Shown: piece after piece, positions 18,787 through 43,456 of the stretch
Position numbering within the stretch: the stretch's first letter is position 1
How the letters are laid out: each line of letters starts with the position of its first letter
Source of the DNA: Shigella phage SH6
Sequence record: KX828710
Length of the DNA stretch: 50,552 bases
Direction: 5' to 3' (one strand)
The notes under the pieces: generated by a model
What the model saw: only the letters and a program-made list of their open reading frames with translations
Databases searched by the model: none
Told to the model about the DNA's origin: nothing
Made by a program: the position numbers and the translations under genes

Positions 18787-19455
18787 ATGCACTTACCAAA
18801 TGGCGCACAAATTTTCGTGGAAACCTCTCGCGGGGTAGAGGTTGAGGCAACCGCTATCACTAACGCAGAAAATCCTGTTGCTACAGTTGCATCTAAGGGA
18901 GACTTGGTAAAAGGCGATTACGTTATTGTAACTCAGTCAACCTGGGCCAAGATGGTCAGTCGAGTGCTAATTGTTACTGACGCTCAGGAAACAAGCATCA
19001 CTCTAGCTGGGATTGACACCTCTGATACTCTTGTTTTCCCGGCTGGCGGTACGATGAGCTTTGCAAAAATTACTGGCTGGACTGAGATTCCTTGCGTACA
19101 GGAGATTGGTCAGGACGGCGGCGAGCAGCAGTATTACACTTATCAGTGTTTGTCCGACGATAAAGAGCAGCAGATCCCAACGTTTAAATCTGCGGTATCG
19201 CTAACGTACACTTTCGCGCACGAATTTGATAACCCGATCTACCCGATTCTGCGTAAGCTGGATTCGTCTGGTCAGGTAACAGCGGTTCGAATGTACGTGC
19301 CGAAAGCGAGCGAAATGCGTATGTGGGCTGGCATCTTGTCGTTTAACGATATCCCATCCACACAGGTTAACGAAATGGAAACGGTGGAACTCGCCGTATC
19401 CCTGAAAGGTGACTTTACTTTCATTTCCTCCACTCTGGCATCGCCTGGCGCTTAA
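18787..19455 (+). CDS. major tail protein
   Basis: ~220 aa, AAGGAGAC RBS, position upstream of G/G-T chaperone and tape measure; terminator downstream. Confidence 0.65.
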   Translation: MHLPNGAQIFVETSRGVEVEATAITNAENPVATVASKGDLVKGDYVIVTQSTWAKMVSRVLIVTDAQETSITLAGIDTSDTLVFPAGGTMSFAKITGWTEIPCVQEIGQDGGEQQYYTYQCLSDDKEQQIPTFKSAVSLTYTFAHEFDNPIYPILRKLDSSGQVTAVRMYVPKASEMRMWAGILSFNDIPSTQVNEMETVELAVSLKGDFTFISSTLASPGA

Positions 19456-19465
19456 ATACAATCCA

Positions 19466-19495
19466 TAGGGGGCTTGCGCCCCCTTATTCATTTCT
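19466..19495 (+). terminator. terminator-like hairpin after major tail gene
   Basis: GGGGGC TTGC GCCCCC hairpin; weak T-run. Confidence 0.45.
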
Positions 19496-19568: not shown

Positions 19569-19886
19569 ATGGCTAAATTCAATTTCGTGTTGGGCCAGCT
19601 TCCAGACTTCAAACTCCCGGTGACGTTCACCATGCCAAACGGCGAGGATGCGACTATTATTTTTACAGTACGCCACCTTTCCAGTAAAGAAGTGCAAGAT
19701 ATGTATGCGAAGCAGGGCGAAATGAATGATAGCGATTTCATCACTAAGATCGCATCAGGATGGAATCTGGAAGAAGAATTTAACGAAGAGAATGCGCGTA
19801 AACTGGTACAGTATTATCCTTCCGCAGCGTACAATCTGACGGCAACTTACATCAAGGCGCTCGCCGGACACCGCGCAAAAAACTAA
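19569..19886 (+). CDS. tail assembly chaperone (lambda gpG-like)
   Basis: ~105 aa acidic protein immediately upstream of tape measure; slippery heptamer at its 3' end. Confidence 0.7.
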   Translation: MAKFNFVLGQLPDFKLPVTFTMPNGEDATIIFTVRHLSSKEVQDMYAKQGEMNDSDFITKIASGWNLEEEFNEENARKLVQYYPSAAYNLTATYIKALAGHRAKN

Positions 19887-20203
19887 AAAGGGCGGTTTAT
19901 CTGTTATATCAGAAACCGCCGACAGAAGAGCAATTGCGATCGGTTGGCCTCAGTCTTTCTGACTATGAAGATGAGGAACCGGAAACGATAATCGGCGATG
20001 CTGAAATGGTGAAGGCGTGGAATGTTTTTACGTCAATGCTCACTCAGTGGAGAAGTTCAGGCGCTGGAGCTTATGGTCTTGACTATAATGTTTTGCCTAT
20101 GTTGTTCAAAATCTATAAAATAGAAGATGAAGAACTGGCATTGCAGGACGTTAGGATCATGGAAGCGAAAGCGCTTGAAATGATTGCTAAGCAAAACAAC
20201 TAA
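19569..20203 (+). CDS. tail assembly chaperone G-T fusion (via programmed -1 frameshift at 19877-19883)
   Basis: -1 frame is open from the A_AAA_AAC heptamer to 20203 (track ORF 19934..20203); 8-bp hairpin 7 nt downstream. Confidence 0.6.
19877..19920 (+). other. programmed -1 ribosomal frameshift site (slippery heptamer A_AAA_AAC + stimulatory hairpin)
   Basis: Heptamer 19877-19883 just before G stop codon; 8-bp stem GGCGGTTT/AAACCGCC at 19891-19920. Confidence 0.6.
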
Positions 20204-20226
20204 GCCGCCGTTTGGCGGTTTTTTCG
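20204..20226 (+). terminator. rho-independent terminator after G-T
   Basis: GCCGCC GTTT GGCGGT hairpin + TTTTTT. Confidence 0.6.
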
Positions 20227-20241
20227 TATATAGGGGGTTAT

Positions 20242-23115
20242 ATGGTTGATAAGGTAGCAGGTCTGTCGCTTGACGTTGATGTGTCAACAGTGCAGCGCGC
20301 CGTCAAGTCACTGAAAGAGTTTTCAAAGGCCAACGACCAGGCCGCTGATTCTATGGGTTCTTTAATCAATGAGTCAGAGGTTGCAAAACAGAAGGCCAAA
20401 GAACACGCTGAACAACTAAAGCGCCAGAGAAAAGAGTATGAGGCCGTGGAGAAGGCAATCGATCCTACAGTATCAAAAATGGAAAGGTTGAAGATTGCAT
20501 CTCAGCAGCTTGATAAACTCTGGCAGCAGGGAGTCGTTCCAGATGAGACATTTTTCCGTTTGGGTGAAATGCTGGATCTGCAAAACGCAAAACTTGCTCG
20601 CAGCCGGGCCATGCTGACGGAAGAAGGTCAGGCAGCATTGCAGGAAGCGAAAGCAAAAGAGCAGGCGGCAGCACGCAGCAAGGCGTTCATGGATGCCCTG
20701 AATGGTCAAGTTAACGCGATCGGCAAGACTCATGCTGAATTGATGGAACTGAAAGCGGCTGAGCTTGGACTTTCGAATGAGGCAGCGCCACTGATCGCCA
20801 AACTGAAAGAGCAGGGACGAGCAATGAATGCCGCAGGTATTAGTGCAGGGCAATATAGGCAGGCAATGAGAATGCTTCCCGCACAGATTACCGACGTCGT
20901 TACATCTCTTGCGTCAGGTATGCCAGTTTGGATGGTTGCTATCCAGCAAGGTGGTCAAATAAAGGACTCGTTTGGCGGGATCGGGAATACGTTTAAGGTA
21001 TTGCTCAGCTATATTAATCCGGTCACAGTTGGTGTTGGTGTTCTTGTCGGATCTTTAGGTCTTCTGGCGAAAGCTGGTTATGACTCTTACAAGTCAATAA
21101 CTGACATTCAGAATGCGCTTATTGAGACTGGCGGTTATGCAGGTGTTACGGCTGAAGAGCTTGATTCAGTGTCTAAAAAGATCGCGCAGACAAGCAACTC
21201 AACCATTGGGAGTATTCGCGAGATTGTAACGGAGTTGGCGAGTTCTGGTAAGTACACCCGCGAGCAGATCCAGAACATCACTAAGGCTACCGCAGAGTGG
21301 TCAGCGTCAACAGGAAAATCAGCAAGTCAAATTATTTCTGAGTTCGACAAAATCGCAAGCGATCCGGTAAAAGGTCTGAAGAAGTTAAACGAGCAGTATA
21401 ATTTCCTTGAAAAAGGGCAGCTTACCTATATCGATACATTAAGCCGGACGAAAGGTGAAACTGAGGCAGTATCTGAAGCAACGAAATTATTCGCCGACGT
21501 AATGGAAAAGCGAATGAAGTTGATCGCGGATAATGCTACCCCTCTGGAAAAAATGTGGAACGATATTAAACAATGGGCTTCGGACGCGTGGGGATGGGTG
21601 GGTGATCATACACTTGGGGCGCTAAACCTGATTATCGACGTTGTTCAGGGTACAGTGATTCAGGTTAAAATGATTCTTGCGAAGGGTGATGAGTACATCT
21701 CAAACTTTATCGCCTCAGCCATAAAGGCAACTCAGTCACTGCCTGGAATGAGTGATTTCGGCGCTGATGTACTGAAGGAGCAGGAGAATATTGTAAAAAG
21801 TTCTCGCGACAACTACGATCAGTTAGCTTCAGAGCTTGACGCTATTAACGCTCGTGTAGAAAAAGGCGAGATGGGATACATTGAAGCAATGAGGCAGCGT
21901 CGCACCCTTGAAAAGCAGTACAGTGAGGAAACTAAGGAGGCAATAAGGAAAGAAGCAGAAGAGATCGAGAAGCGAAACCGAGAACGAAATAAGCAGTCGA
22001 AAATTGTACGCTCACCGACAGAGCAATTCGACAAGGAGTTAATTTCACTCAAGGCTCAACTTAAGGTATTGCAAGAGCACAAGGAGATCGGGCAAAAACT
22101 TTCCGCACAGAGAAAAGCGCTGTTTACGACCGAGGCGACGATTGCTGTTCTTCGTGAAGCCAGTTCCAAGCGTCAGTTGTCTGCGGAAGAAAAAGCATTG
22201 TTGGCAAGTCAGGAGAAGGTTGTAGAACTTGCTAAACAGAAGGCTGAGATTGGCGATCAGATTGTCAAGCAACAGCAGTTGAACGCACTTACCGACAAAT
22301 CACTGAAGTTTGTCAATGAGATGACGGCGGCGACGGAACAGCTTAACGCTTCACGAGGTCTTAGTACTCGCGAAATGGAACGACAAGCTGAACTAGCTAA
22401 AATCACCACTGATTACATCAACTCCGGCGGCAGCGAAGGAGACGAGAAGCTTCAGAACATGATTAAGGCGCAAAATGATTACTACGCTGCGGAAGATGCC
22501 AAGCGGGCTGACTGGTTGGCAGGTGCTGAAAGTGCTTTTGCTGATTACGGCGATTCTGCAATGGATATGTATGGTAACGTATATGATATCGCGTCAAGTT
22601 CACTTAACGGAATGAGTGATATGATGACTCAATTCCTGACTACAGGTAAGGCAAACTTTGAGGACTTTGCGAAAAACATCATTAGCATGATTATTAAGAT
22701 GATTGCTCAGATGGTAATATTCAATACGATCTCTGGCATGATGGGTGGTAAAACATGGAGTTTTGCAGGTGGATTGACTTCCGGCGCTTCTGCGGCATCA
22801 CAGACAACTCCTACGCCTGCCGCATCTGGTTTTAGGTCTTTATCTTCAGGTGTCGCCGTTACCTCGCTTGCTGCCGCTGCGGGTAGTGTTGCAACCTCTG
22901 GATTTAACGCATCTAAATCAGCACCGAAGGCAGTAAACCATTCAGGAGGTGGAACGGTCGTTGACGTTAGCGGAATGGAGGTGAAAGTTGACAACGGTTC
23001 AGATCCGAGGGGGATTTCTCAGGGTGTAGAAATGATGTTCAAAAAAATGATTCGTGAGTCTTGTTCGCAGGGCGGCGAGGTTTATAATTACATTCAGGAA
23101 AAAACAGGAGGTTAA
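20242..23115 (+). CDS. tail tape measure protein
   Basis: ~960 aa, coiled-coil-rich, hydrophobic/Gly-rich C-terminal segment; ATG at 20242 after terminator with AGGGGG RBS. Confidence 0.85.
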
Positions 23116-42567: not shown

Positions 42568-43055
42568 TGAGTTTAAAAAATAACGTTATAGGCGCATCGA
42601 TCGGGGCCGCTTTGACGTTGACACCTACCCTACTGGAACGAATCGAAGGTATAGAATACGAGGTTTATTACGATATCGCCGGAGTCCCTACCGTATGCAG
42701 CGGAATAACCGGGCCGGACGTAATACCCGGTAAGAAATACACTAAGCGAGAATGCGATGCATTGCTGATAAAACATATCGGCGTCGCTCAGCGATACGTC
42801 GACAAGAAGGTAAAGGTTGACATCCCGGTAACTATGCGAGCATCACTGTATAGCTTCACTTTCAACGTCGGGACTGGCGCGTTCGGATCTTCTACAATGC
42901 TTAAGCTAATAAATCAGAGTAAGCACAAGGAAGCGTGCAATCAGTTATGGCGATGGGTGTACTACTACAACCCAAAAACCAAAAAGCGCGAAGTGTCTAG
43001 AGGACTCAAGAACCGACGCGCTGAAGAATACGCGTATTGCGTTAAGGAATTATGA
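42567..43055 (+). CDS. endolysin (phage lysozyme, GH24-like)
   Basis: N-terminal [22 protein letters not shown] lysozyme signature; 162 aa. Confidence 0.8.
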
Positions 43056-43456
43056 TGAAACTGGAGAAAACGTGCATTGCGATTGCAGTGGCTGTTGGTG
43101 TTATTTCCCTATCAGGTTGCTCGACGGCATCTGCCCTGAGCGGTTTAATCGGATCTAAACCTGAAGTTACAGCGCAAATCGGAGAGGAGAACACAAAGCA
43201 ATTAGCAGGAGTAACCGCAAAATCCGAAGATAAACGAGATGTTAAAGTTGAAAAGTCCAATGTAGGAAAGGTTGACTCTTCCGTGAAGAAGTCAATTGAA
43301 GTGTCAACCATTCAGGCCAACACGGTTAACGCTGAAAGCATCACAGTAACAAAACCGGAAAGCTGGTACGATACTATCGTTGGCTGGACTCTCGTTTTTA
43401 TTGGTCTATTGCTTGTTTGTTTTTCACTTCGTAAGTACGAAAAAAAGGAGGCGTAA
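43052..43456 (+). CDS. unimolecular spanin (T1 gp11-type)
   Basis: Lipoprotein signal with lipobox LSGC and C-terminal TM helix [13 protein letters not shown] in one polypeptide. Confidence 0.7.

Follow-up and report, generated by a model that had tools for sequence, protein, structure and literature searches.

In Shigella phage SH6 (sequence record KX828710), analyzed here as a single window of 50,552 nucleotides, a short gene just ahead of the tape measure gene ends in a run of six adenines, a cytosine and a stop codon, and a second reading frame runs past this stop codon in the -1 frame. This raises the question of whether the second frame is a gene of its own or an extension of the first that is reached by frameshifting. 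Several lines of evidence point to an extension: the anatomy of the locus, the homologies of its products, synteny, conservation throughout the family, a -1 frame that evolves as coding sequence, and RNA that folds more stably than the encoded protein demands. The locus very probably represents a G/G-T programmed -1 ribosomal frameshift by which this T1-like siphophage makes two forms of its tail assembly (tape measure) chaperone. The features concerned are the following.

18787..19455, + strand: major tail (tube) protein gene, the upstream neighbor (PF08813 Phage_tail_3 at 18787-19452, E = 1.2e-70, and T1 annotation)
19569..19886, + strand: gene G, tail assembly (tape measure) chaperone, 105 aa, 11.9 kDa (PF08748 Phage_TAC_4)
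19877..19883, + strand: slippery heptamer A_AAA_AAC in X_XXY_YYZ register, at the last two sense codons of G
19884..19886, + strand: stop codon TAA of G, immediately 3' of the heptamer and overlapping the first -1-frame codons, CTA AAA
19883..20203, + strand: T segment, 106 codons plus a stop in the -1 frame, DUF1799 domain (PF08809)
19569..20203, + strand: predicted G-T fusion, 211 aa, 24.1 kDa, with two alternative joins
20242..23115, + strand: tape measure protein gene, the downstream neighbor (PF06791 TMP_2, E = 5e-75, and T1 annotation)

Gene G starts at ATG 19569 behind a good SD sequence (AGGAG) and ends in GGA CAC CGC GCA AAA AAC TAA; the placement of AAAAAAC at 19877-19883, in X_XXY_YYZ register before the stop codon, had been proposed by a sequence-only reading of this DNA and was confirmed. 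In a Pfam scan the product of G matched Phage_TAC_4 over its full length (residues 1-105, E = 2.6e-37), and the -1 extension matched DUF1799 (E = 2.7e-12). A single PHROG profile of 213 positions, phrog_17368, covers the G and T halves together. The pair lies between the Phage_tail_3 gene and a gene that matches both TMP_2 and Tape_meas_lam_C (PF09718, 20242-23112, E = 7e-25), so the location just ahead of the tape measure gene, on which the same reading had relied, holds. The order of genes is tail terminator, tail tube, G, T, tape measure and minor tail (lambda-M-like). Tunavirus phages, T1, JMPW2 and SH2 among them, match this region at 97-99% identity. Identity to the same region of Escherichia phage ADB-2 (JX912252.1) is 97.0% with coordinates 4,265 bases apart, which indicates that the SH6 genome differs from ADB-2 and is another Tunavirus genome or arrangement.

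Two hairpins with T tails that resemble intrinsic terminators flank the G/T pair, one 3' of the tail tube gene (19467-19484, + strand) and the other between T and the tape measure gene (20202-20221, + strand), where a terminator is annotated in T1. These may step down transcription over the tube, chaperone and tape measure genes.

The -1 frame, described earlier as open from the heptamer to 20203, is indeed open to that point, yet it opens earlier, at 19802; the last upstream stop is TAA 19799, the terminal stop is at 20201-20203, and the open stretch includes the ORF 19934..20203. Joining 19569..19883 to 19883..20203 gives a fusion with the junction ..AKN-LKR, while joining 19569..19880 to 19880..20203 gives ..AKK-LKR. 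The calculated mass of the fusion is 24,088 Da with Asn at the junction (position 105) and about 14 Da more with Lys, and the previous estimate of about 23 kDa was too low. A count over both strands of the window, limited to ORFs of 80 aa or more, gave 33 in-frame heptamers of the type X_XXY_YYZ (Y = A or T). Only at the end of G does a heptamer lead into a long -1 extension, which reaches 105 codons beyond the 0-frame stop; the runner-up reaches 20. Since this is the sole such case among 33, the combination of heptamer and long -1 ORF is more than chance.

Another ORF in the window, 43052..43456 (134 aa), contains A_AAA_AAG, the heptamer most prone to shifting in E. coli, in frame at 43441-43447 (+ strand), two codons before its stop. 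This ORF lies 3' of a likely endolysin gene, and with its lipoprotein-type signal (LSGCS) and C-terminal hydrophobic segment the predicted product looks spanin-like. A -1 slip at this heptamer would swap the last two residues for an 18-residue tail, and the heptamer may be incidental.

The frameshift of SH6 is already known in the sense that it is annotated in T1, and it is an ordinary textbook case of the G/G-T arrangement. GenBank entry AY216660.1 of T1 contains a 635-nt coding sequence joined from two pieces (CPTT1_039 / AAP50000.2, "tape measure chaperone, frameshift product") that shares its ATG with the 105-aa chaperone CPTT1_038 (AAP49960.1, 'tape measure chaperone'). The locus is the same in the two phages, with 97.7% DNA identity and an identical heptamer, stop codon and hairpin, and under the same join the 211-aa fusions differ by one residue (A76T). 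The deposited T1 fusion has Lys and not Asn at the junction, and T1 has TTA where SH6 has TTG 19934. By exact database look-up of the SH6 fusion, neither junction version was found to be deposited; only the K version of T1 is. Genome papers on T1-like phages mention a "conserved translational frameshift" of tape measure chaperones, citing Xu, Hendrix and Duda 2004. In the literature, the original T1 genome paper not being among the papers covered, we found no experimental evidence for the G-T product in T1-like phages.

Comparison was extended to 35 and then to about 80 related loci from viral contigs, whose G products are 44-100% identical. In all intact relatives the final sense codon of G is followed at once by a stop codon, which is TGA in two loci and otherwise TAA, and there is a -1 ORF of about 104-110 codons. 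The claim of a conserved G/G-T arrangement was thus borne out, with Phage_TAC_4 and DUF1799 as its two domains and with shift site, stop codon and -1 ORF kept down to 44% identity in G. In two viral contigs (L034:1501-1811 and L036:1501-1808) the G homolog is cut short by an early stop and resumes in a different frame; these interruptions are probably assembly indels and not biology.

The heptamer itself is less uniform than the arrangement. A_AAA_AAC and the following stop are invariant in most genera, as expected of the slippery heptamer proposed earlier, while two lineages allow a slip on the Lys codon only: L073-L077 have GCA AAG GTC TAA (A_AAG_GTC) in its place, and in Webervirus, the Klebsiella-phage lineage, the site reads GCA AAA GTC/GTT/GCC TAA. 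The only shift element found throughout the family is A_AAR, at the penultimate sense codon (A_AAA in SH6, 19877-19880). In relatives with GCA AAG GTC or GCA AAA GTY, re-pairing is possible only by a single tRNA-Lys slip on A_AAR.

This suggests that in SH6, too, only tRNA-Lys might slip on A_AAA (19877-19880), with the next -1 codon, AAA, being read to give ..AKK-LKR.. instead of the ..AKN-LKR.. of a tandem slip. Besides A_AAR being the sole element common to all lineages and the inability of the L073-L077 and Klebsiella-phage sites to re-pair in a tandem slip, A_AAG and A_AAA are recognized tetramer motifs in E. coli, and the T1 fusion AAP50000.2 is deposited as the K version. The K in that record is the annotator's choice, however, and not a measurement. 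Furthermore, A_AAA_AAC is invariant in most genera including its final C, even though AAT also codes for Asn, and this suggests selection on all seven bases. We regard the single-tRNA slip in SH6 as quite possible and hold it tentatively alongside the tandem slip.

The heptamer is expected to be a weak one. A_AAA_AAC is rated as low-efficiency in E. coli, although IS elements use it nonetheless, and a low efficiency fits the low level of frameshifting expected for G-T. No SD-like stimulator of the dnaX / IS911 subtype was found at 6-17 nt upstream of the motif; the upstream anti-SD duplex of -3.2 kcal/mol is no better than that of recoded controls, in the window and in most lineages.

Downstream of the stop codon, one further feature was identified.

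19891..19920, + strand: RNA hairpin, candidate frameshift stimulator, starting 7 nt after the heptamer

The sequences GGCGGTTT (19891-19898) and AAACCGCC (19913-19920) are exact reverse complements of one another; the spacer ahead of the first is 7 nt and the loop between them 14 nt. The two arms of the perfect 8-bp stem described before are therefore real, yet the minimum-energy fold is a bulged hairpin of 11 bp, in which 19891-19897/19914-19920 form a lower stem and 19900-19903/19910-19913 an upper stem, separated by a UA bulge (19898-19899) and closed by a 6-nt loop (19904-19909). Its minimum free energy is -16.1 kcal/mol (z = -5.3), a stability reached by 0 of 200 dinucleotide shuffles; the 30-nt hairpin has -14.5 kcal/mol alone and -16.1 kcal/mol in context. 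Empirical limits for stimulators are 4-10 nt for the spacer, G-C for the closing pair and at least 7.6 kcal/mol for the unfolding energy (Sharma et al. 2014, PMC4066793), and the SH6 hairpin falls within them on all three counts. It was also considered as an intrinsic terminator and rejected, as it was not called on either strand by a scan that found only the two flanking terminators.

The hairpin shares both of its arm sequences with the terminator that follows T: GGCGGTTT occurs at 19891 (19891-19898) and at 20214 (20214-20221), and CCGCCG occurs at 19916 (19916-19921) and at 20205 (20205-20210). An alternative long-range pairing between the two structures, about 300 nt apart, is possible on paper.

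A hairpin in coding sequence need not be a stimulator; it could be a by-product of the R-A-V...K-P-P peptide and its codon choice or have some other purpose, for example mRNA stability. The stem lies in sequence that codes for T only, and its native fold was compared with synonymous recodings of the same peptide. With window-wide codon usage none of 2000 recodings reached -16.1 kcal/mol (mean -5.9 +/- 2.7), and with the codon usage of the locus 2 of 500 were as stable (fraction 0.004). Lineages that encode RAVYL.YQKPPT, T1-like and neighboring, have folds of -13 to -19 kcal/mol (fraction at most 0.007 versus recodings), and in every T1-like lineage tested the native fold was 10-13 kcal/mol better than synonymous recodings. 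The stem needs the rare Arg codons AGG or CGG, plus GCG and CCG, and these are used where the stem needs G. All of this, together with a 7-nt spacer and a stability that resemble those of known stimulators, argues against a by-product.

Other observations point the opposite way. L072 and L081 encode the identical peptide via CGC GCC GTC and do so without such a hairpin (-2.7 kcal/mol), and a hairpin of the SH6 type is likewise missing from several further lineages that have the same heptamer. Strong downstream structure is not known to be needed for the lambda G-T frameshift. No compensatory changes in paired positions were found in 25 distinct sequences, which were chosen by peptide and not by fold; 86% of cells were paired over these 25 relatives, a value equaled by shuffles. 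The covariation test favors neither view, however, because the protein fixes one partner of most pairs. Low entropy at four-fold sites of the stem (GCG and CCG invariant in 36/36) was discounted, since that set had been chosen by hairpin stability and the argument would be circular. Weighing these points, we consider it rather unlikely that the hairpin is no stimulator.

Some of the lineages that lack the hairpin have different, longer structures 3-7 nt after the motif, and these are likewise stabler than their recodings, which also speaks against a by-product. In L087 (L087/L097 lineage) a 70-nt structure has -34.2 kcal/mol versus -16.8 +/- 3.7 kcal/mol for recoded sequences, and in Webervirus a 122-nt structure has -55.7 versus -35.7 +/- 4.8 kcal/mol. 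Structures of L097, L072 and L078 are also stabler than their recodings; for all of these longer structures the segment lengths were picked after the best hairpins had been seen, and the p-values are somewhat optimistic. A local 7-bp hairpin in the Klebsiella lineage was considered as a conserved counterpart of the SH6 hairpin and rejected, being not significant versus recoding (0.11-0.19). L063, L073, L086, L110 and L051 yielded no significant structure at all.

Since it is missing in some lineages, and others are without structure, the hairpin is not required for the G/T arrangement. Of the frameshift signal proposed earlier, a heptamer followed by a hairpin, both parts are present in SH6 and the hairpin stands as a candidate stimulator; across the loci compared, the hairpin is lineage-specific and not family-wide. 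The most economical reading of these comparisons is that the downstream structure would be a dispensable tuner that varies by lineage and not a core signal.

The same fusion might also arise without any ribosomal slip. RNA polymerase slippage on the A6 run would add one A to some transcripts, and standard translation of these would yield G-T with the junction ..AKK-LKR... The run of six adenines is rightly placed and insertion of one A gives the correct frame. Productive transcriptional slippage in bacteria usually takes longer homopolymer runs, though, and AAAAAAC is present 14 times on the + strand of the window. In addition, relatives in which the run is shortened to A4 (GCAAAAGTC) or A3 (GCAAAGGTC) keep the arrangement of G and -1-frame T, so an A-run of slippage length is not the conserved feature. 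We consider transcriptional slippage highly improbable, and ribosomal frameshifting at the end of G remains the preferred explanation.

Finally, G and T could be separate proteins, with T starting at TTG 19934 or at ATG 20006; TTG is a permitted bacterial start codon, and an ORF of 89 or 65 aa is annotated here in many records. The earlier judgment that the ORF 19934..20203 has no plausible start is upheld by several lines of evidence. There is no ATG, GTG or TTG in the -1 frame at 19802-19933. TTG 19934 has no usable SD, with only GAAGAG 3 nt away, and ATG 20006 has none, unlike G and the tape measure gene, which have clear SDs. The codon homologous to 19934 is CTT in 34 relatives, TTG in 22, TTA in 15, CTG in 8 and CTA in 1, and TTG 19934 is by this comparison an ordinary, non-conserved Leu codon. 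Over the 48 nt from the stop of G to 19934, summed entropy in 45 distinct relatives is 7.1/7.1/20.5 at -1-frame codon positions 1/2/3, and the -1 frame is interrupted by a stop in 0 of the 45 sequences, the other two frames in 5 and 22. From third-position variation and the lack of -1-frame stops we conclude that this stretch evolves as -1-frame coding sequence. At the protein level, the 17 codons 5' of 19934 are conserved from the first post-shift codon, with a peptide L-[KR]-[RK]-A-V-Y-L that begins at the very first -1 codon, overlapping the stop of G. Given coding in the -1 frame from the shift site onward, no earlier start or SD and a TTG that is not conserved, independent initiation of T is hardly credible, and the T segment is predicted to be expressed only as the C-terminal half of G-T.

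The closest functional comparison is phage lambda. Conserved frameshifting in tail chaperones was described by Levin et al. 1993 and by Xu, Hendrix and Duda 2004, 2013, 2014 (as summarized in PMC5009743); in lambda, gpG and gpGT are made at about 30:1, G binds the tape measure protein and T recruits the tube protein (PMC5009743). Lambda and SH6 both have two overlapping ORFs between the major tail and tape measure genes, the second in the -1 frame and without its own start, with a slippery site at the end of the first. The slip site of lambda is G_GGA_AAG, whereas that of SH6 is A_AAA_AAC with the stop directly after it, and the SH6 lineage, unlike lambda, has a stable hairpin 7 nt downstream. 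In lambda-type systems short and long chaperone forms are made, while those of SH6 are predicted from sequence. The SH6 proteins, with Phage_TAC_4 and DUF1799, fall outside the lambda G/T sequence families. No other Pfam family was matched by G or T at E <= 1, homology to lambda G/T was not detected, there was no NCBIfam model for either, and a search for PDB relatives by sequence returned only noise (E around 0.08). The SH6 pair is best described as a functional analog of lambda G/T, or at best a very distant homolog. Five features that characterize G/G-T pairs of long-tailed phages (Xu et al. 2004) were nonetheless found: position, -1 overlap without a start, a conserved slip site, coding in the new frame after the shift site and a first ORF that belongs to a chaperone family. 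In a pair of this kind the fusion would also be made at a low, fixed ratio, be required for tail assembly and be missing from virions.

At the RNA level the signal resembles those of IS1, the IS3 family and dnaX, which use A_AAA_AAC or A_AAA_AAG, of the same class as the SH6 heptamer, and share with SH6 a G-C-closed hairpin that starts 4-10 nt downstream. Hairpin energy per nucleotide is also similar, at 0.48 kcal/mol/nt in SH6 versus 0.45 +/- 0.12 in IS3 members. The differences are that dnaX and IS911 have an upstream SD-like element and SH6 has none, that the SH6 product is a structural-assembly chaperone and those of the IS elements and dnaX are a transposase or polymerase subunit, and that the SH6 hairpin is a candidate stimulator.

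We infer the following course of events, including slippage and its frequency, the tRNA or tRNAs that slip, stimulation by the hairpin and the roles of G and T. Most ribosomes would translate G and terminate at TAA 19884, yielding the 105-aa chaperone. A minority would slip back by one base on the A-run (19877-19883) and read on in the -1 frame as far as 20203, yielding the 211-aa G-T with the DUF1799 domain as its C-terminal half. If these proteins act as gpG and gpGT do in lambda, the tape measure protein would be coated by G and by the G part of G-T, the tail tube protein would be brought in by the T part, and the frequency of frameshifting would fix the ratio of G to G-T. With a heptamer that is intrinsically weak in E. 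coli, the adjacent stop codon and the hairpin at 19891-19920 likely raise or tune slippage in this lineage.

The main value of these observations is for annotation, as most deposited T1-like genomes split a chaperone gene that should be given as one, with a second form extended by frameshifting. The label 'tail length tape measure protein' is widely and wrongly attached to G and T, in RefSeq records and in phrog_569, phrog_680 and phrog_17368; other records split them into two 'hypothetical' ORFs, and FairDinkum (Webervirus) has two overlapping chaperone coding sequences annotated with no join. G and T are chaperones, distinct from the tape measure protein itself. The tail assembly chaperone core is a target of the bacterial Avs17 immune sensors (PMC13581612), which makes both chaperone isoforms relevant to work on phage defense.

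The new detail is modest and consists of a weak heptamer beside a stop codon and of downstream structures that differ by lineage. It is conceivable, although we would put it forward only as a conjecture on the doubtful side, that throughout Drexlerviridae the mechanism is a single tRNA-Lys slip on A_AAR beside the stop codon of G, with the downstream structures as interchangeable, lineage-specific tuners. If so, the junction residue in T1-like phages would be Lys and not Asn, and the 30-nt, 70-nt (L087/L097) and 122-nt (Webervirus) structures would have arisen or been remodeled independently, setting the ratio of G to G-T. The phage family offers a convenient natural series for how stimulators tune the ratio of structural proteins.
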